Part shown: positions 1 through 11,088 of the stretch, piece by piece
How positions within the stretch are numbered: position 1 is the stretch's first letter
Layout of the letters: every line of letters starts with the position of its first letter
From: an uncultured archaeon
GTDB lineage: Archaea > Iainarchaeota > Iainarchaeia > Iainarchaeales > 0-14-0-20-30-16
Assembly (NCBI GenBank): GCA_964565725.1
Contig: CAZMGA010000019.1
Span: forward strand, 1-11,088
Length of the DNA: 11,088 nt
Reading direction: 5' to 3'
The notes under the pieces: generated by a model
The model's database searches: none
Seen by the model: the letters and a program-made list of their open reading frames with translations, nothing else
Told to the model about the DNA's origin: nothing
Program-made: the position numbers and the translations under genes

Positions 1-1
1 G

Positions 2-124
2 AAAAAGGATAAAAAAGATGAAAAGAAAAAAGATAATTTAAATTTGGATTTAGATTTAGATTCAGGATCAAATCAAAATGAAACTACAGATGATGATTTT
101 GAATTAAATTTGGACTTAAAATAA
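2..124 (+). CDS. 3' end of an unidentified CDS whose 5' part lies outside the window; Lys/Asp-rich low-complexity C-terminal tail
   Basis: Only + frame 2 is open across 1-124. It gives 40 sense codons (KKDKKDEKKKDNLNLDLDLDSGSNQNETTDDDFELNLDLK) followed by TAA at 122-124. The other two + frames hit stops within the first ~40 nt. A 40-codon open run is unlikely by chance in sequence this AT-rich. The ORF is too short for the supplied track, and I recognise no domain. Confidence 0.45.
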   Translation, partial: KKDKKDEKKKDNLNLDLDLDSGSNQNETTDDDFELNLDLK

Positions 125-1669
125 TTAAACTAAATATGAATTTACCGCATTCGAATAAATAGTATATGACTCGGGGTTATGAACATTTTGATTAGTATAA
201 GAACCATTAAAAACAGTATTTAATATATTATCATACACATCAATATATTCATCAATTAAATTACCTTTTTGAGATTTAACCCAATCATTTATTGCTTTTC
301 TAGTAGATATATTTTTGCCAGGAGTTATAGACAAAGCAATAACTTTTGTATTATTTTTTTTTGCTAAATTATATATTGCTGTTAAATTTTTTTTAACGCC
401 AGATATATTTATAGAAGTTGATCCAATATCATTTGCACCACCCATAACAAAAATATAATCATATTTTTTTCCTGAATTATATTCAGCAGTTAATTTATCT
501 AACATCCATTTAGTGCTTTTTCCAGATTCTGCAATTTTAGTAATTTCGTATTTAGATTTATCATAAATATTATTTAATTTAGGGTAATAACCAACAGTGA
601 TAGAATCTCCTAATAAAAGTATTTTAGTTTTTTCATTAGTCGTTTTTACTGTTTTTGTTTTATTTAAGAAAAAAAAATCATATATAGAATTATAAAATTT
701 AGGCCAATTAAAATTACTAGAACTAGAAGATGATTTTTTCCACACATTGTAATCATTATTAGAAATTTCTGCTAATCTTGTTTCATTATTTATATTAAAT
801 TCAATATATTTAGAATCTAAAGATGCTTCACAAAATAATTTATCCCAACCATCTACTTCAATATAAACAAAAAAATCATTTACTTTATTTATTTTATAAC
901 TGGAAGAAGTATCCCCAACTCTTTCATTATATTTTTTATTTAAAATGATTTTATCATCATATTCAGAAGGTTTAAGTAAATAAGTTTTACATTGAGTTGT
1001 AGTACCTATTGTACCTTTAATATATGTAGAATAGTTATCTAAATCATCTAATTTAATTAAATCCTCATCAGTAATTTTCAAAATTTTTCCTTGTGAAAAA
1101 CCAGTTTGACAAACAGCTTTACCATATTCATTAACAATTACTATTTTTCTGTCATCTTCAGAAATATTAGCTTTATAGGGTTTTACAGATTGATTATACC
1201 CATATGTTCCTTTAAAATTAAAACCTGATAAATCATTATTAATATTACATTCTTGAATATTTAGAGGATCAAATCTATAAATATAAAATCCTTCTTTATT
1301 ACTTTGTGTTTCAAATTTTATACATCTATAATGTATTTCTAAATTATTTTTAATTTTAAAACACATATAATTATTATTTAATTTATTAGATTGACTTGCA
1401 CTACAAACTTCATTATTAGAATTCCAAGGATAAATTACAGTATAATTATTATTAGTATTATTTATTTTATACAAAACATATGGCGGACCAACATTTTCAT
1501 TAAAATTTTTAAAATTTTTAAATTCTCTAGTAACTATAAAGTCAGATATATCTAAATCATTTCTATAATTACAGTCCCAAATATCTAAAGAGAATACAAA
1601 AGAAAATGACAATATTGTTAACAAAACTAAAAAAATATAATTTAATTTATTAAAACTCATAAATATCAA
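125..1669 (-). CDS. Secreted SGNH/GDSL-family hydrolase (esterase type) with an N-terminal region of three Cys-bracketed repeats
   Basis: 514-codon ORF ending in TAA (125-127). There are two candidate starts: TTG 1667-1669, which overlaps the upstream TGA as TTGA, and ATG 1658-1660, which lies 5 nt after that stop. The N-terminus has a signal-peptide-like h-region (NYIFLVLLTILSFSFVFS). The C-terminal third carries the SGNH blocks: I ILLLGDSITVG (Ser356, codon 602-604), II ESGKS, III FVMGGANDIG (Asn413) and V NVHNP (His497, codon 179-181). A poly-Ser linker (res 313-318) separates the two halves. Confidence 0.9.
   Translation of the reverse strand: MIFMSFNKLNYIFLVLLTILSFSFVFSLDIWDCNYRNDLDISDFIVTREFKNFKNFNENVGPPYVLYKINNTNNNYTVIYPWNSNNEVCSASQSNKLNNNYMCFKIKNNLEIHYRCIKFETQSNKEGFYIYRFDPLNIQECNINNDLSGFNFKGTYGYNQSVKPYKANISEDDRKIVIVNEYGKAVCQTGFSQGKILKITDEDLIKLDDLDNYSTYIKGTIGTTTQCKTYLLKPSEYDDKIILNKKYNERVGDTSSSYKINKVNDFFVYIEVDGWDKLFCEASLDSKYIEFNINNETRLAEISNNDYNVWKKSSSSSSNFNWPKFYNSIYDFFFLNKTKTVKTTNEKTKILLLGDSITVGYYPKLNNIYDKSKYEITKIAESGKSTKWMLDKLTAEYNSGKKYDYIFVMGGANDIGSTSINISGVKKNLTAIYNLAKKNNTKVIALSITPGKNISTRKAINDWVKSQKGNLIDEYIDVYDNILNTVFNGSYTNQNVHNPESYTIYSNAVNSYLV
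128..628 (-). other. Segment encoding the SGNH catalytic domain of the downstream hydrolase (res ~348-514)
   Basis: The GDS, G, GxND and H blocks occur in canonical order and spacing (see the CDS entry). Confidence 0.85.
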
Positions 1670-4600
1670 CTTAATCCCGTAGATTTCAAATCATTATTAT
1701 ATGCTAAAATAAATGGAGAATTATTTTTTAATGTTCTATGATCACTTAAACCAATATAACCCCAATCAAAACCACTTCTAGGATCACCTTTTGCAGCTAA
1801 TTCAAAATGTGCAATAACAGCAGTATCTGAAATATCTTTTATTAATCCTCTATCTTTTATATCTTTTAATAATTTCTTTAAAGATTCATGTTGTTTTAAT
1901 GTGTAAGGATAGCCTCCAAAATTTATACAATGTCTTAAATCTATAGCTATTGAAAGAGTATTTATAAGAATATCTTTACAACTTTTATCATTTGTTTTAC
2001 AACCCGCATGATTTGCACCATAATCTTCAGAAACTAATTTAAAAATTTCTCCAGAACAACCTATATAATAATGACTTGAAGTTTTTCTTGCGTCCCAATC
2101 ATGAATACAATTATTTACCGCAACATCATCAGTATAAGTAGATTTTTCCCAACCACCATCGTGTAAAACTACAAAACCATATGCTGCTCTTTTAGTAGTG
2201 TTTTTAGCAATTCTTTTATCATCAAAATATTTAGTATTAACCTTAATATAATTAGTTTGTAAAGGCATTACAGAATCTATAGATATTAAATTTTTAGATA
2301 ATTCAGGTCCTAATTTTGTTGTTATAGGTTTAGGTAATGCAGAATAACTTAAACATTTTTCTGATTCATTATTTAAATAATTTAAATACTCAGTCCAATA
2401 CAAATCAATAGATTGATTTTTACTTTGATTTCCTTTACATTTATTAGTATCTGGTATATTTCCAGAACTATCTACACAACCAGGGCCCACAACATAAGAT
2501 TTTACTGTTAATTCTAAATCTTTTTTGTTAGTATAAATAGAATATAATAAAGAAGCTTGATACATAATAGATAGTTCTGCTTTTGTTCTAGGATCTTTGT
2601 TTAATATCCCTTTACCATCATATAATAAACCACCTTCTTTTTGATACATTTTTCCAGTGTTACAAGTTAAGTCATACAATTCATTAAAATTTTTAATATT
2701 TAATTCTTTAAAATCATCACTATTAAAATTAAATACACTTGAAAATTCAGAATATTTTCCTTTAATAATATTTTTAGTAAGATCACAAAAAGTTTCAGGC
2801 TTAAGTTGTCCCAAACCAACAGCATAACTTTGAGAAACAATCATAGGATTAAATCTAGATTCTTTATATGTTTGTGCAATTAAATTTTTTGCATCCATTT
2901 TACCATTAGTTTTTTGTTTTAATATATCTCCATATTTAATAAATAAATCTTTATAATGAGTACAACCTATAAGTGGCTGTGTTGCGTTTGTTGAATTGGA
3001 AGATGAAGTACTTGTAGGAATTGGAGCCAAAGTATTAGCCCCACTATTGTCAATTAAACCATCTGAAATATATCCTTTAGTTATATTTTCAGTATTACAA
3101 AAGTTTTGTAATATTTTGTTAGATTCTAATTCTTTAACAGTACCAATATATTTATTTTCATTATTTGGATCTACAGTTAAAATCATAGTATAATAATGAT
3201 TTCTAACAAAATTATCTGGCAATATAAATTCAATACTTTTTGCAGAATTAAAACTTTCTTTAGTCATAAGTTTAGATGTTCCTTTATATGCTAAATCTGC
3301 TAATACTCCTGCAACTGCACCTCTTAACATACCTTTTGCAAAATTCCATATTTTTGTTCTTGTCAATGTTTTTGATTCTACATCTTTAATCAAAGCTTTT
3401 AAAGCATCATCATCTATATCGTCTACAACAGTAGCTGGTGGTGTATTAGGTAAATTTTTAATTTTTAATTTTAAAACATCTCTTTCGGCTTGTATTTTTT
3501 TAATTTCAGTATCAATTTTTAAAAAATCATCATTTAATTGTTTAAGATTAGGACAAGGTGGTGTTTTTCCCATACAAGCTTTTATTTGGTTTGTTAATTG
3601 ACCTTTCTTTGGACCTAATTTTGTTGTTAATTCTTTATTTATTTCATTAATTCTTTTTACATCTGAAGGATCTGGTGTTGATGCAGTTCCTGGAGTAGTA
3701 ATTGTTTTAGGATTTCCAATTCTATCCCAAGTATCCTTATTAGTTAAATTTATTTTTTCATCTATAATTTTAATAAGATCATCCAAACTGCTTTTATATT
3801 GTTTATTATGTTTGTTTATTACTTCTGCAAATTTTGGATCTGTATTATAAAACTTTTTCAATAATTCATTTTTACTTGTTACATTATTAATTATATCTTT
3901 ATTTGCAGGATCGGATAATTTTTTAACAAACATGTCTATAAATTCATCTGCAAGTTTATTTTGTGAATAAGTGCCATTAGCTAAATTTTTTACACTTGTA
4001 TAACCTACTTCTGCACCTCTTACACCTGCATTTACTGTTGCACCTGTTGCAGCTGCCTCTAATTCATTTAAATAGGAAATATCTGTACTATCTTTTAAAG
4101 CTTTTTGAGCATCAGCAGAATCTTCATAATCTTCAAACATCCAATCAGTCAATATAAAATCATTTAATGAATCATGAACTTTATCTAAAGCATTTCTACT
4201 AGAATTTCCAGCATATACATTTAATCTATGATTTGCATAAAGTGTGGAACCTGCAAAAGATCCAACTATTACGCCACATTCAATACCTGCTTCAACCCAT
4301 AATGCAGGACTCATAGCTTTTCCTTTAAAAGCTAATTCTGCAAGCATACAAACCCCTGCAGATACTCCACTAGATACTCCTACTCTCAATCCCAAACCTT
4401 TATTTAAAGTTTCTACTACTGCTTTAGTATTATTTGCAGCACAATAATTATTAGAAACTTTACCACTAAAAGAAATATTTTTATTTTGTGCTAATTTATT
4501 TAAAACTTCACAACTGTTTATTCCTTCTTTTTCTCCTTCCCAATAAATTAAAGCTGAATAATTCTTATTACTTAAATCTGAATTTAATATACCTCCTAAA

Positions 4601-7600
4601 TAGGCTTCAGGAGATACTCCACAAGGTTTAAATTTAACAATTAATTGTTTTTCTTCACCATTTGTAGGTGTAAAAATAATTTTCAAAGGTAAGTTTTCCG
4701 AGTATGAAATTGCTTTATTAGGATCAGTAAAATTAACTCTTAAAACATATTCTTTAGTAGAAGCATTTACAAATGAAACATCATTTACTTCATTACCTAT
4801 ACTATCAATTATTTTTGCAGAATAGCCTTCCATTTGTGCAGGATAAAATGAAAATGAACCATAACCTGTTTTTGTCCCAGATATTGTAAAAGTACAATCT
4901 ATATCACCATAATCTACATTTAAAACATTACATCCTTTTAATTCATATTGTCCAGTAGTAGAATCTGATGGAGATACTACTTCAAATTCATTATTTTTTG
5001 CATTATAACAACCAGTAAAATTTCCTTGTAATGCAGATTTAATTACATTAACTAAATCCTTTTTATCTTTATCTTGTTCTAAATTGAAATTTTCATTAAT
5101 TACTACTACTACATTATTATTATCAAATTTTAATTTGATTAGATTTTTTCCAACATCCCCTTTGGTTAAAAATAAAGTATTATCTCTATCATCCAATACT
5201 CTTTCTGTACCAAATAATTCTTTTGAAACAAAATCAGATAAAGGTTTAAAAGTATATTTTGTATCATAATAGACAAATGCAGGTTTAAAACCAAAAGCAC
5301 TATCTGCTAAAATTGTAGTATCTAAAGGCAAAAATAAAGCAGCATTGTTTACAGTTCTTTTACATTCTTCTGTATTTTCCTTTTCAAATTTAACTATTAT
5401 ACTATAATTATCTGATTGTGCTATGTTATCAACCACATTAAAAAAACCATTTAATGTTACAGTATATTTTCCACAACCTTTAAAATTTGGTTCAATAAAT
5501 AATACATTATAATTTGAAGTAGATTTCATATTTTCAAAAGAATAATTATTAGGCAAAATATTTACTGTTTTTAAATTAGTTTTTATTTTTTCTAATAAAA
5601 CATTATTAAAATATTCATTACTCAAATTATCTTCCATTAAATATACTACAAATGTAGAATCTTCTACCCCTATATTTCCAAATTCACATTTTGATTCAGC
5701 ACAAGTCTTTATATCTTTAGAATTCACAGCCAATTTATTTTTATATTCTTTAACATAACCATTTACTTTTTGAGATATAAATTCAGATGCTAATTTTCCA
5801 TCACAATAAGCATTACTACAATCCATAGATTTTGCAACTTTAGGATATAACAAAGATGTATCTTCGGAAGTATCACAATCTTTAATTGTTTTTTTAGTTG
5901 TAGGTTCTTGTGAACTACTTACTGCACTATCTCCAAATTTAAATTCGTAATTTATTTTTTTAGCATATGTTTTGTTTGTAGATAAGCCTCTTGCAAAAAC
6001 ATCTATAACTGAAGAATCATCTTGTTTTTCTTTAACAGCTACAACAGATTTTATTTCTGTTCTTTGCCCTGGTGTTAAAACTAAATTATTAGAACTTAAT
6101 GTCAAAATATTTTGTGTAGATACATTTTTAACAGATGGTAAATTTAATCTAACAGATTCTGCACAATTATTTATTACTACAATGTTTGAAGTAGTAGCAT
6201 TTATATTTAATTTTGTACTTTTAAATTTTAATATATTTTGAGTACCATTAGCATAAAATTCAACACATGTTGATGAGGATATTTGTGCAAATAAAGGTAC
6301 ATACTTAACTATTTGTGAATTATCTGCAACACTTGTTCCTTTTACTACCAAAACATATTCTGCAAAAGCACTATCAAAACTTAAACCTTCAACACCAAAA
6401 GATATTATTGAATTCATTCTTTGTTGTGGCCCCAATATTTGCAAATTAGTAGGTCTTGGTAAAATTTTCATTGCTACATTAGTTTTTTTAATTTGTGTTG
6501 TTCCATCCCAATTAGTAAATGGATAATCATTACCTAAAATAAAACTATCAGGATTATAAAAATTAGAAACTGTTGAATTTCCAATATTACTTAAACCCAT
6601 AGCATTTCCACTAGTCATAGTTTGATCTATATAATTATTATATTGCTGTGCGGATATTGTAATATTTTTTAAATTAGTAGTGCCATTATTAAAAATTGAT
6701 AATACAACTGAATTTAATTGACCAGTAGTAATATTATGTAATTGACTTGGTGAAACACTAATTATTAAATCTCCAAAACTATGAACTAAATTTAAAGTAA
6801 CAGGTAATTGTTTTTGGAAATATTCTGTATTAAAATTAATAAATGCTTCTACATTTACATTTGAAGAAATTAATGATTTTAAAGAGAAAGTATATTTTAC
6901 TAATTTAGTATCTCCTTTTTTTATAGAAGTTGTTGGTATTTGTAAATCAATTATTTCTGCTAAATTTACGTTTGATCTTAAAACTAATTCTGGATTTAAA
7001 TTAGAAATGTCAACTTCACAATTATTTTGTATTTGAATTTCACCAGCCACTTTTTGATTTACTCCATCATACAAAATCAAAGGCAATTTTGAAGGGTTTA
7101 TAGCCAAACAAGATGCATCCAAATTACTATTTGCAACGTAATTTATATGAATTACTTGTCTTACTATTTCTCCACCATCTATAATACCGGTCAAAGCAAT
7201 ATCTTGATCTCCATAAGCCAAATCATTTTCATCATAACTTACATTTACTATAATTTTAGAAGTTTTACTAGACATCAAATTAGTAGTAGAAATTCTATAA
7301 TCTATATTAAAATTAGTAGCATCATCTCTCATTATTTCTAAACCAATGTTCTTTAAATTAAATTTAGAAATATTTTTAAAAGGAATTTCATAACTTCTTG
7401 TTTTCATACCAACAGGTATTTTTATTTCAATTTCTGTATCAACATCAAATACACCAGTTCTAGTAATTAAAAATTGACCACTTGTAGAATTATGTCCTGT
7501 AGCCGAAACTTTATAATTATATATTCCGGATGGTAATTCATTAATCACATATTTTCCGTTTAATCCTAAATTATTTGTATTATTACCTTCTATATATTGT

Positions 7601-10410
7601 ATTACAGCATTATCTGAACTTACAAGATTTATTTTAGCATTAGAAATTTTGTTAGAACTATCAGAAATATCAAAAATAATTTGTTGACCTATATTGAAAG
7701 TATTTGCATTTAATTTTACTGTTAAAGGTTTTTGATTTTCAATATTAAAATTAAATTCTTTATTCATATTTAGTTCTTTAGAACTCATCAATATATTTCC
7801 TACACCCACATCATTAGTTCTAAAATATAATCTATATTTTTTATGTTCTCCTTTTAAGATTGACAAAGGAATATTCAAAGTGTTAAAGTTTAAATCTAAT
7901 GGTGAAAAATTAACTACATCATTACTAATATTATTTAATAATAATTTGTTAGTATTGTTATTTGTATTAAAATCAATATTAACATTTAAAGTTTCCAAAG
8001 CATAAAAATCAAAATCTAAAGCGTAAGTTTCATTTTTTATTGCTGAAAATGAATCATATTTTTTAAAACTATCAGAATATGAATAAGAATAACATAAATT
8101 TTGATTACAAGCAAACAAATCAGAAAAAACATTTATTGTTTCTTTTTTTGTTAAAGAATATAATCTTAACAATTTATTAGAATTTATTTCTGTATTTGGT
8201 TCACTATGATAAAGACCATCAAAAGAATTTACTCTATAATCTATATTGATATTTTCTAAATCTTTTGCATCATCTAATTTAATTTTTACTTTAATTTCAC
8301 TTAAACCTTTAGGATTATTAAAATACAAATTAACCCATTTATTTTTTATCCCGGGTCTTCCAAAAACTTTCAAATCTTTTACATTTGATTCTGTTGAATT
8401 TGGATTATAATGTAAACCATATTCTTTTATAGAATTAGATGAAATTACAGAATTAATACTATAAGGCAAGGAAATTATAGGAGTATCTTCTCCAACTCTA
8501 ATATGTACTTCCCCTTTATCTTGATTTCCAGGCCAAATTACAGTAAATTTTAAAAAATAATAATTACCTAATTTAACTCCATTAAGTTGATTTCCTTCTA
8601 AATCATAAACACCATCAAAACTTATTTTTGGATTTTTAGAACGTTCAAATTCATTTAATAAAACTTCCATTTCTTTTTCAACAGTCATTATTTTAGAATA
8701 AGATTCGTCATCATAAATTACATTTATTTCTACTTCTTTTGAACCGTTAGGATAAAATTCTATATTTCCTTCTAAAGTATTTCCATCAAATAATTTTGTA
8801 TTTCCTGACAATATTTGAACTTGTGCATTTTTTAATGGGTCTCCCAAAACATCATAAAAATAAACTTTACTCACATCTTCATTAGGAGTCATAACTAAAG
8901 AATAATTAGTTTCACCAGCGTTTAAGTCTAAATAATCTGACCCATATAATTTTTCACTTTGTGCACTAACCAATATTTTTTTATTAGCTTCTAAATTAAA
9001 AAATAAAGCGCCAGAAATAGATGTTTGTGTTTTTGTTAAATAAATAGGCAATGGAACATCATCTTCCATATAATATGCACTCACTTGAGATTGTACTGGT
9101 TTATTATCTATATCTACAGTAAATAATTGTAATCTTGCAATATTGTTAGGAGCCATTTTAGTTAAAACAATTGTTAATTGTTCTGTATTTGGGGTAATAG
9201 TTTTTACAGATGGAAAATAATTTCCAAATTCAGCAGTAGAAACATAACCACTTCTTTTTACATCTAAACCATTAAAATCTACAATTCCAAAAGCGTTAGT
9301 TATTTGTGTTGAAATTAATAACCCATTATCAGAATATAATGCAACATTTACACCTACTAATTCTTTATCTGTTTCATCTTTAACAATAACTTTTAAAGAG
9401 GTCCCACCAATACTTAAATTAATATTTATTGATTCTGCATCAGAAGTTAATTTTAAATTTCTACCATAATCTTCTGAATCCCATGTGATATATCCAGTTT
9501 TACTAACAACATATCTTACTATTGTTCCTTTCGGTATATTTTCTAATGCTTTTCCTTCATTATCAGTATAAATTTCAGAAAGTTTTTGTTGTGTTTTTGA
9601 ATTATATATTGTTATTAGCACATCTTTCAAAGGTTGATTATTAGAAGAAATATTAAAATTAATTGTTCCGGATTCTCCATTAGAAATTTCTTTTGGTTCT
9701 AAACCTAAATCTTTTAAGCCATTACCCGAAACACTTATTTGGTCATATAAATGATATCCATCTTTACTGATTATTACTTTTAAAGGTTGATTTAAAGGCA
9801 CATCTGTTAAATTTACATTACCAGATTCATCAGAAACACCAGAAAATAATAATGTGCCATCATCAGAAAAAATATTTATATCCGCATTAGGTACAAAGGT
9901 ATTATCTTTATTATCTAATAATCTAAAAGTCATTGAACCAGTTTCCAAATCTTTGCTTAAAACAAAAATTTGAGTTAGTTCTTTTGAAGAAATAACTATT
10001 TCTTCAGGTCCTACTAAATAATAATCTTCTAAATAAACATTAACTGTTAAAACATTTCCAATTTTTGTTTTAAATTTTATATTTTCAGAGCTCACTATTC
10101 CATTATAAACTACTTCTTCGCCAGATTTTAAAGTCAAAGTTATATTTGAAAGGGGATTTTGATCTTCATCTACAAAACTTAAAGACATATTTATTGTGCT
10201 ATTTACTGAGAAAAATAAAATTAAAAGAACGATTGCTACAATTAAAATTAAAATTATTAAATTAAACCACATTGGTGGAATTCCATGATTTTCTAAAAAA
10301 TCATTATATCTGTCAATAGGCAATCCTTTTTCTGATAAAAAGTCGCTCATAGCGTAATATTTTTCTTCTAATTTCGAATTAATATTTCTAAAAAAATCTC
10401 CAATCCCCAT
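1666..10410 (-). CDS. Giant (2,914 aa) N-terminally membrane-anchored surface protein: CarboxypepD_reg-like beta-sandwich repeats, unknown central domains, glycine-zipper hydrophobic pair, C-terminal lytic transglycosylase (SLT) + N-acetylmuramoyl-L-alanine amidase (Amidase_2)
   Basis: Uninterrupted ORF from ATG 10408-10410 to TGA 1666-1668, with an SD-like GAAAGGTG 7 nt upstream. Residues 1-47 are polar and residues 48-69 form a hydrophobic helix (WFNLIILILIVAIVLLILFFSV). Six ~80-aa repeats span res 74-585 and a seventh spans res 895-984, with signatures such as SDESGNVNLTDVP..KDGY, TDNEGKALENIPKGT..KTGY and NGKYVINELPSGIYNYKVSATGH. Glycine zippers lie at res 2005-2058. SLT motifs are present: E2517-S, GLGQL 2532-2536 and SYVVGPG 2638-2644. 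Amidase_2 motifs are present: FVVLH2750, SSHYYIGCSGEIFKLV, NTLSIAIDL and AH2868FELAAKGD2876P. My residue numbering was cross-checked by counting from both ends of the protein and against codons in the DNA. Confidence 0.95.
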   Translation of the reverse strand: MGIGDFFRNINSKLEEKYYAMSDFLSEKGLPIDRYNDFLENHGIPPMWFNLIILILIVAIVLLILFFSVNSTINMSLSFVDEDQNPLSNITLTLKSGEEVVYNGIVSSENIKFKTKIGNVLTVNVYLEDYYLVGPEEIVISSKELTQIFVLSKDLETGSMTFRLLDNKDNTFVPNADINIFSDDGTLLFSGVSDESGNVNLTDVPLNQPLKVIISKDGYHLYDQISVSGNGLKDLGLEPKEISNGESGTINFNISSNNQPLKDVLITIYNSKTQQKLSEIYTDNEGKALENIPKGTIVRYVVSKTGYITWDSEDYGRNLKLTSDAESININLSIGGTSLKVIVKDETDKELVGVNVALYSDNGLLISTQITNAFGIVDFNGLDVKRSGYVSTAEFGNYFPSVKTITPNTEQLTIVLTKMAPNNIARLQLFTVDIDNKPVQSQVSAYYMEDDVPLPIYLTKTQTSISGALFFNLEANKKILVSAQSEKLYGSDYLDLNAGETNYSLVMTPNEDVSKVYFYDVLGDPLKNAQVQILSGNTKLFDGNTLEGNIEFYPNGSKEVEINVIYDDESYSKIMTVEKEMEVLLNEFERSKNPKISFDGVYDLEGNQLNGVKLGNYYFLKFTVIWPGNQDKGEVHIRVGEDTPIISLPYSINSVISSNSIKEYGLHYNPNSTESNVKDLKVFGRPGIKNKWVNLYFNNPKGLSEIKVKIKLDDAKDLENINIDYRVNSFDGLYHSEPNTEINSNKLLRLYSLTKKETINVFSDLFACNQNLCYSYSYSDSFKKYDSFSAIKNETYALDFDFYALETLNVNIDFNTNNNTNKLLLNNISNDVVNFSPLDLNFNTLNIPLSILKGEHKKYRLYFRTNDVGVGNILMSSKELNMNKEFNFNIENQKPLTVKLNANTFNIGQQIIFDISDSSNKISNAKINLVSSDNAVIQYIEGNNTNNLGLNGKYVINELPSGIYNYKVSATGHNSTSGQFLITRTGVFDVDTEIEIKIPVGMKTRSYEIPFKNISKFNLKNIGLEIMRDDATNFNIDYRISTTNLMSSKTSKIIVNVSYDENDLAYGDQDIALTGIIDGGEIVRQVIHINYVANSNLDASCLAINPSKLPLILYDGVNQKVAGEIQIQNNCEVDISNLNPELVLRSNVNLAEIIDLQIPTTSIKKGDTKLVKYTFSLKSLISSNVNVEAFINFNTEYFQKQLPVTLNLVHSFGDLIISVSPSQLHNITTGQLNSVVLSIFNNGTTNLKNITISAQQYNNYIDQTMTSGNAMGLSNIGNSTVSNFYNPDSFILGNDYPFTNWDGTTQIKKTNVAMKILPRPTNLQILGPQQRMNSIISFGVEGLSFDSAFAEYVLVVKGTSVADNSQIVKYVPLFAQISSSTCVEFYANGTQNILKFKSTKLNINATTSNIVVINNCAESVRLNLPSVKNVSTQNILTLSSNNLVLTPGQRTEIKSVVAVKEKQDDSSVIDVFARGLSTNKTYAKKINYEFKFGDSAVSSSQEPTTKKTIKDCDTSEDTSLLYPKVAKSMDCSNAYCDGKLASEFISQKVNGYVKEYKNKLAVNSKDIKTCAESKCEFGNIGVEDSTFVVYLMEDNLSNEYFNNVLLEKIKTNLKTVNILPNNYSFENMKSTSNYNVLFIEPNFKGCGKYTVTLNGFFNVVDNIAQSDNYSIIVKFEKENTEECKRTVNNAALFLPLDTTILADSAFGFKPAFVYYDTKYTFKPLSDFVSKELFGTERVLDDRDNTLFLTKGDVGKNLIKLKFDNNNVVVVINENFNLEQDKDKKDLVNVIKSALQGNFTGCYNAKNNEFEVVSPSDSTTGQYELKGCNVLNVDYGDIDCTFTISGTKTGYGSFSFYPAQMEGYSAKIIDSIGNEVNDVSFVNASTKEYVLRVNFTDPNKAISYSENLPLKIIFTPTNGEEKQLIVKFKPCGVSPEAYLGGILNSDLSNKNYSALIYWEGEKEGINSCEVLNKLAQNKNISFSGKVSNNYCAANNTKAVVETLNKGLGLRVGVSSGVSAGVCMLAELAFKGKAMSPALWVEAGIECGVIVGSFAGSTLYANHRLNVYAGNSSRNALDKVHDSLNDFILTDWMFEDYEDSADAQKALKDSTDISYLNELEAAATGATVNAGVRGAEVGYTSVKNLANGTYSQNKLADEFIDMFVKKLSDPANKDIINNVTSKNELLKKFYNTDPKFAEVINKHNKQYKSSLDDLIKIIDEKINLTNKDTWDRIGNPKTITTPGTASTPDPSDVKRINEINKELTTKLGPKKGQLTNQIKACMGKTPPCPNLKQLNDDFLKIDTEIKKIQAERDVLKLKIKNLPNTPPATVVDDIDDDALKALIKDVESKTLTRTKIWNFAKGMLRGAVAGVLADLAYKGTSKLMTKESFNSAKSIEFILPDNFVRNHYYTMILTVDPNNENKYIGTVKELESNKILQNFCNTENITKGYISDGLIDNSGANTLAPIPTSTSSSNSTNATQPLIGCTHYKDLFIKYGDILKQKTNGKMDAKNLIAQTYKESRFNPMIVSQSYAVGLGQLKPETFCDLTKNIIKGKYSEFSSVFNFNSDDFKELNIKNFNELYDLTCNTGKMYQKEGGLLYDGKGILNKDPRTKAELSIMYQASLLYSIYTNKKDLELTVKSYVVGPGCVDSSGNIPDTNKCKGNQSKNQSIDLYWTEYLNYLNNESEKCLSYSALPKPITTKLGPELSKNLISIDSVMPLQTNYIKVNTKYFDDKRIAKNTTKRAAYGFVVLHDGGWEKSTYTDDVAVNNCIHDWDARKTSSHYYIGCSGEIFKLVSEDYGANHAGCKTNDKSCKDILINTLSIAIDLRHCINFGGYPYTLKQHESLKKLLKDIKDRGLIKDISDTAVIAHFELAAKGDPRSGFDWGYIGLSDHRTLKNNSPFILAYNNDLKSTGLS
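1741..2208 (-). other. Segment encoding the Amidase_2 (T7-lysozyme/PGRP-type N-acetylmuramoyl-L-alanine amidase) domain (res ~2735-2890)
   Basis: The putative Zn ligands are H2750 (codon 2161-2163), H2868 (1807-1809) and D2876 (1783-1785). The H-to-D/C spacing is 8, as in T7 lysozyme His122/Cys130. The conserved SSHYYIG..G.I..LV and N..SIAIDL blocks are also present. Confidence 0.85.
2476..2964 (-). other. Segment encoding the SLT (family-1 lytic transglycosylase) domain (res ~2483-2645)
   Basis: NLIAQTYKE2517SRFNP contains the catalytic Glu-Ser (Glu codon 2860-2862). AVGLGQLKPETF matches the GLMQ motif, and SYVVGPG matches the AYNxGxG motif. Confidence 0.85.
4237..4398 (-). other. Segment encoding paired glycine-zipper hydrophobic helices (res 2005-2058)
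   Basis: The sequence is GLGLRVGVSSGVSAGVCMLAELAF-KGKAMSP-ALWVEAGIECGVIVGSFAGSTLY. Helix 1 contains G2011xxxG2015xxxG2019 and helix 2 contains G2042xxxG2046xxxG2050xxxG2054. This region is a visibly GC-richer island in the DNA. Confidence 0.7.
8656..10191 (-). other. Segment encoding six tandem ~80-aa CarboxypepD_reg/PEGA-like beta-sandwich repeats (res 74-585)
   Basis: Each unit opens with an alternating hydrophobic strand plus D/N..P[LV]..[AV].[VI].[LI], for example LSFVDEDQNPLSNITLTL, LKVIVKDETDKELVGVNVALY and VYFYDVLGDPLKNAQVQIL. Most units contain a (T/S)DxxGxxx[FL] turn and a [KT]xGY strand. The repeats are diverged at the DNA level. Confidence 0.75.
10204..10269 (-). other. Segment encoding the single N-terminal transmembrane anchor of the giant protein (res 48-69)
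   Basis: A 22-residue uncharged hydrophobic run, WFNLIILILIVAIVLLILFFSV. It is preceded by a 47-aa charged tail and is the only such run in the first 2,000 residues. No signal-peptidase-like site follows it. Confidence 0.8.
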
Positions 10411-10461: not shown

Positions 10462-11088
10462 TTACAATAAAGGAGACAATAACCTAGCAAATGATTGCTT
10501 AAATTTAGTAAAAAAACTTTGTTTTCTCAAATCTACAATTTTTTGTTCTATTGTTTCATTTAAATCGTTTAAATAAATTTTTGTACAATTATCAGAAAAT
10601 TTTGAATTAAAAACAAAAGCTGTAACTTCAAAATCTAAATCTAAACTTCTAGAATCTAAATTTGTAGAACCTATAGCAACTACATCATCAGAAATAACTA
10701 ACTTATTGTGTAAAAAACCTTTTTGATATAAATAAATTTTAATTCCTGAAGACATTAACTCACTAAAATAAGTTTTAGTAGCCAAATCTACCCACAAACT
10801 ATCTGATTTTTGAGGCAAAATAATTTTTACATCTACGCCTTTCAAAGATGCAGATTTTAATGCAAACAACAAAGTTTCATCGGGTATAAAATAAGGTGTT
10901 TGAATATACAACTTTTTTTCTGAATTAGTAATTAACGAAAATAAAACAAATTTATTATTTGACCATTTTAAATCTGGCCCAGATGGAGTAATGTGAATTA
11001 CTGAATCTCCAAAATTATTTATTTTTGGATATAACTCTTTTGAATATATATTTTCCTTTTTAACAAAAGCCCAATCTTTAACAAATAT
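10462..11088 (-). CDS. cls: Cardiolipin synthase / phospholipase D-family phosphatidyltransferase, C-terminal part (5' end outside window)
   Basis: The supplied ORF begins at an internal TTG (10909-10911). My hand translation shows the same frame stays open for 59 more codons to the window edge (IFVKDWAFVKKENIYSKELYPKINNFGDSVIHITPSGPDLKWSNNKFVLFSLITNSEKK-LYIQTPYFIPD). The SGPD and TPYFIPD blocks are typical of Cls enzymes. An HKD motif is present, HNKLVISDDVVAIGSTNLDSRS (His codon 10708-10710), which would be the second of the two PLD motifs. The stop is TAA at 10462-10464. Confidence 0.85.
   Translation of the reverse strand: MFVKDWAFVKKENIYSKELYPKINNFGDSVIHITPSGPDLKWSNNKFVLFSLITNSEKKLYIQTPYFIPDETLLFALKSASLKGVDVKIILPQKSDSLWVDLATKTYFSELMSSGIKIYLYQKGFLHNKLVISDDVVAIGSTNLDSRSLDLDFEVTAFVFNSKFSDNCTKIYLNDLNETIEQKIVDLRKQSFFTKFKQSFARLLSPLL

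Follow-up and report, generated by a model that had tools for sequence, protein, structure and literature searches.

The C6-OH of MurNAc must be free for lytic transglycosylases to act (PMC5077204). In Neisseria, the esterase Ape1 takes off the acetyl group and complexes with the lytic transglycosylase LtgA, with mutual enhancement of both enzymes (PMC7083599); their coupling in this organism is documented as both physical and functional (PMC7083599, PMC5077204). Ape1, of Neisseria and of Campylobacter, and the esterase analysed below are alike in being exported SGNH esterases of the GDSL_2 type paired with a family-1 lytic transglycosylase. The Ape1 enzymes are devoted to own-wall turnover, belong to the patA/patB cluster of a murein-producing bacterium, hold a CBM35-type domain inside the SGNH fold (NmApe1, CjApe1) and possess a full Ser-His-Asp triad. 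Ser-His dyads are known in the CE2 family, and PatB and the C-terminal domain of OatA likewise adopt the SGNH fold (PMC9487903). Many CE2 enzymes run on such a dyad, dispensing with the block V Asp; both these and the acetyl-xylan esterases 7TOG/7TOJ combine a beta-rich N-terminal module with a C-terminal SGNH domain, the CE2-type setting being a polysaccharide-utilisation locus.

Membrane-anchored two-enzyme wall-breaching proteins are known from PrgK and from TraG of pIP501, VirB1-like components of the monoderm/Patescibacteria T4SS, which pair SLT with CHAP or other peptidases; the source on PrgK and TraG describes no SGNH partner. Finally, large extracellular SLT proteins that reach ~3,000 aa, and for which binding or degradation of bacterial walls has been proposed, have been described in Pacearchaeota and Woesearchaeota, in a paper whose main text does not use the words esterase, GDSL or SGNH (PMC8204110).

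Here we analyse a stretch of 11,088 nucleotides (the window) from a very small archaeon of the symbiotic (DPANN) type with a 0.59-Mb genome of 24% GC that is 86% complete, and whose nearest relatives are Iainarchaeota/Diapherotrites MAGs. The window encodes a giant protein resembling those of Pacearchaeota and Woesearchaeota in its size, extracellular location and SLT domain, in a different, Iainarchaeota/Diapherotrites-like lineage and with esterase and amidase partners.

Gene arrangement at the locus

The giant gene (1666..10410, minus strand) codes for a membrane-anchored surface protein of 2,914 aa and would be the first gene of a two-gene unit. A TATA-like TTTATATATATAA and an AGGTG lie within the 51-nt gap upstream of it. 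A PLD-like gene (PLDc_2) is its direct upstream neighbour. The giant protein bears an SLT lytic transglycosylase domain with the E-S catalytic motif (residues 2499-2554; 2749..2916, minus strand; Pfam PF01464, 33.3 bits) and a C-terminal Amidase_2 domain (residues 2746-2877; 1780..2175, minus strand; Pfam PF01510, 48.9 bits). The trio of esterase, transglycosylase and amidase envisaged by the initial annotation occurs in one polypeptide of the unclassified archaeal MAG L023, in the order SGNH-SLT-Amidase_2.

The giant ORF ends in AGT-TGA on the minus strand, and the esterase ORF follows directly downstream. At the junction (1658..1669, minus strand), the sequence reads exactly as first annotated: a TTG (1669-1667) overlaps the TGA of the giant gene (1668-1666) in a TTGA arrangement, with the first ATG (1660-1658) after a 5-nt spacer. 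The span of 125-1669 originally given for the esterase gene holds as an ORF opened by this alternative in-frame TTG, but probably not in its start. Shine-Dalgarno motifs of the GTGAT type are most frequent at -8 or -9 across 327 long ORFs of the same genome, and an SD-like TTGAT, overlapping the stop codon of the giant gene, stands at -9 of the esterase ATG. Because this placement fits the genome-wide peak, and the public gene call agrees in placing an ATG start for a product of 511 aa, the ATG at 1658-1660 is the likely start and the overlapping TTG probably is not. The ORF list, the translation and the public call hence give an esterase gene at 125..1660 (minus strand), with a TAA stop at 125-127 and a predicted product of 511 aa. 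From the 5-nt spacing and the SD-like element on the stop codon of the giant gene, we infer that the two genes form a co-transcribed and translationally coupled unit. In close relatives, a metagenome scan for the split SGNH/giant arrangement yielded only two weak 42-residue matches, and a protein search for relatives with the same arrangement returned only the esterase protein itself.

No Mur ligase, MBOAT or AT3 genes were found in the genome, absences that are provisional because it is just 86% complete. As they stand, they imply that any murein substrate would be foreign and that the SGNH domain would lie outside any PatA/PatB or OatA acetylation system.

The esterase: catalytic domain and orphan N-terminal region

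The esterase begins with a predicted Sec-type signal peptide (residues 1-24, MSFNKLNYIFLVLLTILSFSFVFS; 1589..1660, minus strand), followed by LD; its n-region is basic, its hydrophobic core spans 17 residues and V-x-S serves as a cleavage-type motif, while residues 5-23 form a single helix in the AF2 model. The n/h/c-region features and this helix bear out the signal-peptide-like N-terminus recognised in the initial annotation. Only the last ~170 residues are SGNH, and the ~315 residues that precede them are something else.

The SGNH/GDSL_2 hydrolase domain (residues 341-511; 128..640, minus strand) is supported by Pfam, AF2 and Foldseek. Pfam Lipase_GDSL_2 (PF13472) scores 35.4 bits over residues 353-482, above its threshold of 32.9 (E 1.9e-8), and a genome-wide profile search scores the same domain at 38.3 bits. 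The predicted model (pLDDT 85-98 over residues 341-511) displays the three-layer alpha/beta/alpha SGNH fold and matches the SGNH esterases 8ik1, 7e16, 7ddy, 3p94 and 5b5s with Foldseek probability 1.0 and TM (target) of 0.58-0.76. Its structural neighbours also include the lysophospholipase/thioesterase TesA and generic GDSL esterases, with PDB 8gr2 (Cj0610c of C. jejuni), which we leave out of the argument, at rank 49. Thus, the model predicts the SGNH fold confidently, with the Ser, Gly, Asn and His residues intact.

Block I, LLLGDSITVG, has G351, D352 and S353 invariant in a 34-row alignment, and the GDS nucleophile Ser353 (codon TCT, 602..604, minus strand) is invariant in alignments A1 and A3. 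The oxyanion-hole residues are Gly380 of block II, ESGKST (521..523, minus strand), nearly invariant in A3 and replaced in the G002 and G003 orthologues, and Asn410 of the GGAND in block III, MGGANDIG (431..433, minus strand), invariant in A1 and A3; the key residues of these two blocks are invariant or nearly so. In block V (Q491-N-V-H494; 179..190, minus strand) the His is kept, and the usual Asp at H-3 is Gln491 (QNVH, in the numbering from the ATG), so that the D-x-x-H pattern is lacking. Hence, the description of blocks I-III and V as canonical stands for the first three and for the block V His, but block V as a whole is non-canonical. The Asp is missing too in six relatives (L015, L016, L017, L018, L020 and L021), and is kept by only some of the closest ones, the G002 orthologue among these. 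By analogy with accepted members in CE2, its loss would not bar membership of the SGNH superfamily, though the esterase activity may be lower.

The orphan N-terminal region (residues 25-340, ~315 aa; 641..1588, minus strand) is rich in beta structure and contains 8 Cys and 7 N-x-S/T sequons; its AF2 pLDDT is below 50, too low for a fold search to be informative. Pfam matched it to no known family; when 1.84 billion representatives were searched exhaustively by HMMER with the esterase, the best 150 of 229 matches cover residues ~330-510 only; a search restricted to the N-terminal part recovered only its own sequence, and tblastn of this part against its own genome found no paralogue. The region may contain two or three weakly similar modules, as internal-repeat z-scores reach ~4.4-4.5 for two segment pairs out of three and 1.8 for the remaining one, a weak signal on which no argument here depends. 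A linker motif shared by both SGNH domains of the genome, SNFN[WF]xKFYN preceding each, was a marginal match (E 0.011) and was dropped as evidence.

Relatives of the SGNH domain and their domain partners

Synteny of the gene pair in relatives had been set beforehand as a test, and the linkage of SGNH and SLT proved to be conserved more tightly than by synteny: in 6/6 further Iainarchaeota genomes that possess this type of SGNH, the domain closest to that of the esterase follows SLT on its C-terminal side within one large ORF. These comprise a giant of ~3,000 aa (G002), an ORF that runs off its contig end (G003), and ORFs of 1,941 aa (G004), 3,459 aa (G005), 961 aa (G041) and 1,600 aa (G042), the last with a weak SLT match. 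The G002 giant appears as two ORFs only through a 100-N scaffold gap, and we accordingly rejected this 'split giant' as a natural two-gene parallel. The two domains also occur together in two Woesearchaeota MAGs, as Polysacc_deac_1-SGNH-SLT-Lysozyme_like and as SGNH-SLT, and in CPR bacteria with a pilin-SLT-SGNH architecture. Among the 115 nearest cluster representatives the partners are SLT (16), a T4SS_pilin anchor (14) and PG_binding_1 (5), and more rarely Phage_lysozyme2, Peptidase_M15_4 and CHAP (2 each) and Amidase_2 (1). The named members, from Ca. Magasanikbacteria and Peregrinibacteria, are 'transglycosylase SLT domain-containing' proteins, and the DPANN and CPR fusions are annotated solely as such.

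In trees of 143 SGNH domains, the esterase falls in a clade of 75 rows with FastTree (support 97) and of 76 tips with IQ-TREE (SH-aLRT 91). All 26 SLT-fused copies lie inside this clade and none among the 67-68 rows outside it, and the SLT-SGNH giants from G002 and G003 form the sister rows of the esterase domain. A clustering with lipases or thioesterases, named at the outset as the outcome that would speak against the annotation, was not seen; with neither of the two refuting outcomes encountered, the initial interpretation is supported. The DPANN and CPR fusions, with the same presumed target, belong to the same SGNH clade as the esterase at up to 48% identity. In the esterase itself SGNH and SLT are not in one polypeptide: they belong to adjacent genes, with the stop codon of the first, 5 nt and the signal peptide of the second in between. 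The esterase is therefore a detached variant within this SLT-associated SGNH clade, an operational group defined in the present analysis.

The giant protein is collinear with its G002 counterpart, at 36-39% identity, as far as residue 2688; beyond this point the G002 protein runs straight into an SGNH domain 42% identical to that of the esterase. On this alignment, Amidase_2 stands in the place of SGNH at the end of the giant, the esterase now being a separate gene. Within the same genome, C13 has another large ORF that ends in SGNH-Amidase_2, with an amidase 46% identical to that of the giant. Thus, whereas the orthologous giant of the same genus ends in SLT-SGNH, here the SGNH domain has a separate gene, its own signal peptide and the ~315-aa orphan region.

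Among the characterised relatives with solved structures, those nearest by sequence are acetyl-specific, namely the acetyl-xylan esterases 7tog/7toj, the CE3 acetyl esterase 5b5s, PAF acetylhydrolases and a sialate O-acetylesterase. When all PDB sequences were searched with a profile built from six clade members, 38 matches up to E = 10 were obtained, with no entry named Ape1 or O-acetylpeptidoglycan esterase and none of the N. meningitidis Ape1 entries among them. The SGNH domain is contiguous over ~170 residues and aligns end to end with single-domain esterases of ~200 residues; unlike in Ape1, there is no CBM35-type insertion, the extra region being N-terminal, and the triad Asp is absent. 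Nor is the gene encoded with a patA/patB cluster: in contrast to the own-wall turnover of Ape1, the setting is an archaeon in whose 86%-complete genome no Mur ligase, MBOAT or AT3 genes were found. By sequence the esterase is not a member of the Ape1 family. The domain order resembles that of CE2 and the acetyl-xylan esterases, as does the Ser-His pair; however, the N-terminal module has no detected similarity to any CBM or other protein, and the context is one of murein hydrolases rather than of polysaccharide utilisation.

Proposed function and its implications

To our knowledge, the substrate range of SGNH enzymes is not readable from sequence. Nevertheless, we consider it somewhat probable that the esterase is a secreted acetyl-esterase, a putative peptidoglycan de-O-acetylase that represents the detached module of a recurrent SLT and SGNH wall-breaching cassette of ultrasmall symbionts. 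The best explanation is that it would work like Ape1, by the same logic of freeing the MurNAc C6-OH for the transglycosylase, without belonging to the Ape1 family. As we infer its substrate, its co-translation and the role of its N-terminal region, the esterase would be transcribed jointly with the giant surface protein and exported via its own signal peptide, and outside the cell would strip O-acetyl groups from the MurNAc C6-OH in the peptidoglycan of bacteria that serve as host or prey. Since O-acetylation blocks lytic transglycosylases, this removal would enable SLT, at the giant's tip, to cleave the glycan strand, and Amidase_2 beside it would strip the peptide stems. The ~315-aa orphan region would most likely target the esterase, either to its substrate, as do the N-terminal CBMs of CE2, or to the giant. 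Murein de-O-acetylation is supported only indirectly, by the fusion of the relatives to SLT and other murein hydrolases. The anchored pilin-like-SLT-SGNH proteins of CPR bacteria offer a parallel to PrgK and TraG; the esterase here, unlike these CPR relatives, has no pilin-like anchor, and no T4SS genes occur in the window.

SGNH esterases are documented on phage tail fibres, and by analogy the esterase might act on another bacterial envelope glycopolymer (such as capsule, O-antigen, teichoic acid or exopolysaccharide) instead of on MurNAc itself, and so open the way to the wall. An enzyme that is separate, can diffuse and brings its own binding region would suit such a pre-wall layer, the nearest characterised relatives deacetylate non-murein carbohydrates (xylan, sialic acid), and domains typical of polysaccharide-acting proteins (Beta_helix, Laminin_G_3 or Ig_Rha78A_N) occur in a small number of clade members. 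However, the main fusion partners (SLT, Amidase_2, M15 peptidases, CHAP and PG_binding_1) are murein-specific and not polysaccharide depolymerases, and the partner transglycosylase has no known chemical block other than O-acetylation, so that we regard a glycopolymer substrate as unlikely.

We hold it more improbable still that the esterase is a lipase or (lyso)phospholipase that attacks lipoproteins or the ester-linked lipids of bacterial membranes after the wall has been opened, in aid of the breach or of lipid harvest by a lipid-auxotrophic symbiont. DPANN archaea commonly lack lipid synthesis, TesA/lysophospholipase L1 belongs to the SGNH superfamily and is among the structural neighbours, and the PLDc_2 gene just upstream of the giant would fit this function. 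On the other side, the domain joins the SLT-fused copies, away from the group of short, stand-alone GDSL proteins, its sequence-level neighbours are acetyl esterases, it has no evident lipid-binding or membrane-insertion element, and fusion to a glycan-strand cutter would be hard to rationalise.

The change of the block V Asp, retained at H-3 in G002, to Gln491, the Pfam score barely over threshold (35.4 against 32.9 bits) and the absence of the block II Gly from the G002 and G003 orthologues could also point to a weakened or non-enzymatic remnant, which lost its Asp after detachment and now either is decaying or mainly provides binding or structure. This we find quite doubtful, as Ser353, Gly380, Asn410 and His494 are all kept, the ORF is intact with a signal peptide and a confidently predicted fold, and several SLT-fused relatives have lost the Asp as well, an argument that a dyad is tolerated, as in CE2. 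Lastly, an O-acetyltransferase of the PatB/OatA type that adds acetyl to a glycan, suggested by the SGNH fold of PatB and the OatA C-terminal domain (PMC9487903) and by DUF459/PatB-family matches in 5/115 neighbours, is very improbable and was rejected, as neither an MBOAT nor an AT3 acetyl-donor partner was found in the 86%-complete genome and murein acetylation would inhibit the adjacent or fused SLT.

Returning to peptidoglycan de-O-acetylation, we tentatively propose, though the proposal taken as a whole has well under an even chance of being right, that SLT-SGNH is a self-licensing cassette exchanged between CPR bacteria and DPANN archaea, which marks lineages living on O-acetylated, lysozyme-resistant peptidoglycan, and that here the esterase was freed and acquired a newly evolved targeting domain. 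The detached form of the esterase and its orphan domain would be the new detail. If the proposal is true, the free esterase could prepare the host wall from afar, with the giant staying tethered and gaining an amidase, the locus would be a snapshot of how an archaeal weapon against bacteria evolves module by module, and the cassette could provide a sequence marker predicting bacterial rather than archaeal hosts.

The hosts of few DPANN archaea are known, and those known are archaea. That esterase, lytic transglycosylase and amidase form a conserved toolkit directed at murein argues for an interaction of this lineage with bacteria and for O-acetylation of the relevant walls. The natural SLT-SGNH fusions also lend independent evolutionary support to the pathogen-derived model in which lytic transglycosylases depend on de-O-acetylation. 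Moreover, the clade offers a source of compact esterases and esterase-transglycosylase pairs that may act on lysozyme-resistant peptidoglycan, and the detached form points to the swapping and splitting of modules in giant surface proteins.

Gene junction and expression of the giant and the esterase

The window comprises the entire contig C19 (11,088 bp) of the archaeal genome G000 (0.59 Mb in 34 contigs, ~24% G+C). On its minus strand, the ORF list places the gene for the giant surface protein at 1666-10410 (2,914 aa), followed by the esterase ORF at 125-1669 (514 codons). The junction reads ...GGA TTA AGT TGA TAT TTA TGA GT..., in which, just as the initial annotation had claimed, a TTG (1669-1667) overlaps the stop codon of the giant (TGA, 1668-1666), and the first ATG of the esterase (1660-1658) follows five bases past that stop. 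A survey of ribosome-binding motifs in 327 long ORFs of G000 revealed a 14- to 23-fold enrichment over background of GTGAT, AGTGA and AGGTG upstream of starts, with GTGAT sharply peaked at -8 and -9. These Shine-Dalgarno-like motifs, fixed at -8 to -10 across the genome, help in the choice of start codons in this lineage. Since TTGAT, overlapping the giant's stop codon, lies at -9 of the esterase ATG, and the public gene call (511 aa) begins at the same ATG, we take ATG 1660 as the start and number residues from it. The junction is too short to hold a promoter outside the coding sequence, so the two genes are very likely co-transcribed, and their translation may be coupled.

The 51-nt gap upstream of the giant, with a TATA-like TTTATATATATAA plus AGGTG, separates it from a PLD-like gene (10462-11088, minus strand; PLDc_2, E 6e-29) that lies directly upstream and runs off the contig end. 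This phospholipase-D- or nuclease-type enzyme, encoded beside the wall-breaching giant, might be part of the same equipment for attacking a host. At the other end (1-115, plus strand), a convergent gene truncated by the contig start is represented by its tail alone; this gene closes with a low-complexity stretch rich in acidic residues and Lys, KKDKKDEKKKDNLNLDLDLDSGSNQNETTDDDFELNLDLK, and lies just 9 nt from the stop of the esterase gene.

Domain architecture of the esterase

Residues 341-511 constitute an SGNH domain (35.4 bits to Pfam Lipase_GDSL_2, cut-off 32.9), which is predicted by AF2 with a pLDDT of 85-98 and matched to solved SGNH esterases by Foldseek with a probability of 1.0. A 34-row alignment shows conservation of Ser353 (GDS), Gly380, Asn410 (GGAND) and His494. 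Fold, profile score and blocks I-III, the last as previously described, thus all mark the protein as a member of the SGNH superfamily. The description of block V as canonical was incorrect, because it reads Q-N-V-H, with Gln491 instead of the usual Asp at H-3. The signal-peptide-like N-terminus noted earlier is borne out by the Sec features of residues 1-24 (MSFNKLNYIFLVLLTILSFSFVFS) and a predicted AF2 helix at 5-23.

The intervening residues 25-340, rich in Asn, Lys, Ile and Tyr and in beta structure, with eight cysteines and seven N-x-S/T sequons, are a new region, which AF2 did not model (pLDDT <50). The best 150 of 229 HMMER matches among 1.84 billion cluster representatives align to residues ~330-510 only, with no relative of this region among them; a search limited to it recovered only the esterase itself from 5.8 billion proteins, and no paralogue was found in G000.

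The esterase falls outside the Ape1 family of O-acetylpeptidoglycan esterases: no Ape1 was retrieved among the profile-search matches, and, unlike Ape1, it lacks the inserted CBM35-like domain, the block V Asp and a pat gene context. In placing its SGNH domain at the C-terminus, after an N-terminal region that is not catalytic, it resembles CE2 and acetyl-xylan esterases.

Linkage of the SGNH domain to murein hydrolases

The giant displays an N-terminal TM helix, CarboxypepD_reg/bMG3-like beta domains and, at its C-terminal tip, an SLT (lytic transglycosylase) domain (residues 2499-2554) and an Amidase_2 domain (2746-2877). Giant extracellular SLT proteins are known from Pacearchaeota and Woesearchaeota (Castelle et al. 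2021, PMC8204110), in a paper whose main text lacks the words esterase, GDSL and SGNH. The orthologous giant of the same-genus genome G002 is collinear from residue 1 to 2688 (36-39% identity) and then, past a ~14-residue linker, continues directly into an SGNH domain 42% identical to that of the window. Compared with G002, the window therefore holds ~1.7 kb more between SLT and SGNH, made up of the Amidase_2 module, a stop codon, a second start followed by a signal peptide, and the orphan region. We rejected a two-gene reading of the G002 giant (1,978-aa and 1,023-aa ORFs), as the split is due only to a 100-N scaffold gap (L012:3130-3229, contig C17); synteny comparisons that rely on automated gene calls at this locus will be misled.

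Of 215 genomes of the phylum examined by profile search, only 7, belonging to 3 genera, yielded this SGNH type. The suggested check on conservation of the gene pair showed a linkage tighter than synteny in all six besides G000, where the SGNH domain lies behind SLT at the C-terminal end of one large ORF: G002 (~3,000 aa, disregarding the gap), G003 (running off the contig end), G004 (1,941 aa), G005 (3,459 aa), G041 (961 aa) and G042 (1,600 aa, with a weak SLT match of 18 bits and also a Metallophos domain). Overall, the SGNH domains closest to that of the window are nearly always joined to murein hydrolases, chiefly SLT. Outside the phylum, two Woesearchaeota MAGs encode Polysacc_deac_1-SGNH-SLT-Lysozyme_like (L019) and SGNH-SLT (L022), and an unclassified archaeal MAG encodes SGNH-SLT-Amidase_2 as a single polypeptide (L023). 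Pfam partners in the 115 nearest cluster representatives include SLT (16), a T4SS_pilin-like anchor (14), PG_binding_1 (5), Phage_lysozyme2, Peptidase_M15_4 and CHAP (2 each) and Amidase_2 (1). Trees of 143 SGNH domains unite all 26 SLT-fused copies and the esterase in a single clade of 75-76 tips (FastTree 97, IQ-TREE SH-aLRT 91), with none among the 67-68 domains outside it, the relatives in these counts and trees being non-independent samples. The SLT-SGNH proteins of G002 and G003 are nearest to the esterase; other long members of the clade include more M15 peptidases and one Amidase_2, and the members with names come from CPR bacteria (Ca. Magasanikbacteria, Peregrinibacteria). The association recurs in three different domain orders and two domains of life. 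Within the literature library searched, no paper describing an SLT-SGNH pairing was found. Specific to the window are the detachment of the esterase into a separate gene whose secreted product bears an orphan domain, the substitution of Amidase_2 at the giant's tip, and the occurrence in an Iainarchaeota-like lineage.

The same SGNH type also occurs in SGNH-DUF218-Metallophos proteins (~1,000 aa; calcineurin-like phosphoesterase) of DPANN archaea (L015:9887-12919, L018:9887-13078, L064:5-4804). It is N-terminal in mobile-element 'polyvalent' proteins with ArdC, zincin metallopeptidase and LPD domains (P0008, P0025), a hint that conjugative or phage-like elements carry the esterase along.

A second SGNH domain of G000 is more canonical, with DDLH as its block V; it is joined to Amidase_2 where another large ORF ends (C13:1-1724, L049), and this amidase module, taken together with its linker, shares 46% identity with the one at the giant's tip. 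Near an A-run (C13:351-390) the reading frame of this ORF shifts, through what may be a homopolymer sequencing error or a genuine frameshift. Both SGNH domains of G000 are preceded, at a distance of about 25 residues, by a short motif, SNFN[WF]xKFYN (window 641-720; L049:300-350); the match is marginal (E 0.011, single comparison) and may have arisen by chance or through past exchange of modules.

Predicted function against foreign murein

The SSU rRNA of G000 scores 1,358 bits with the archaeal model versus 1,057 with the bacterial one, and the names of related genomes (Ca. Diapherotrites, Ca. Iainarchaeum) place it among the DPANN archaea. Searches of this 86%-complete genome turned up no Mur ligase, MBOAT or AT3 acyltransferase; hence, any murein substrate should be foreign. 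Two smaller SLT-domain proteins (346 and 420 aa; C3:33665-34021, minus strand, and C5:7026-7343, plus strand) bring its complement to at least three lytic transglycosylases, two amidases and two SGNH esterases, with murein synthesis genes not found.

Domains fused in wall-lytic proteins normally target one polymer. The esterase is quite probably a wall-directed accessory enzyme functionally tied to the giant's hydrolases, and, on the sequence evidence, we lean toward its being a secreted peptidoglycan de-O-acetylase, co-expressed with the giant and licensing its SLT domain on O-acetylated bacterial walls. This narrower proposal draws on the SLT fusions together with three further lines of evidence. 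First, lytic transglycosylases require a free C6-OH on MurNAc, so that 6-O-acetylation of this sugar blocks them, the only chemical modification known to do so (PMC5077204). Second, the Neisseria SGNH esterase Ape1 removes this very group, and forms a complex with the lytic transglycosylase LtgA, each enzyme enhancing the other (PMC7083599). Third, the nearest characterised solved relatives by sequence are acetyl-specific, namely acetyl-xylan esterases (7TOG/7TOJ), a CE3 acetyl esterase, PAF acetylhydrolases and sialate O-acetylesterase. These relatives would also suit a deacetylase of another envelope glycopolymer, a less likely reading beside the recurrent SLT fusions, and their acetyl specificity leaves a lipase or phospholipase rather improbable. 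That Gln491 signals a weakened or non-catalytic remnant is more doubtful still: the H-3 Asp is also absent from several of the closest relatives in the alignments, and many CE2 esterases are active with Ser-His dyads (PMC9487903). A PatB-like transferase is very improbable, since the 86%-complete genome yielded no MBOAT or AT3 partner with which the domain could act as the transferase component of a PatA/PatB- or OatA-type system. As a de-O-acetylase, the protein would be secreted and co-expressed with the giant, would strip O-acetyl groups from the peptidoglycan of bacterial walls and would thereby open O-acetylated walls to the giant's SLT domain, working like Ape1 while not being a member of its family.
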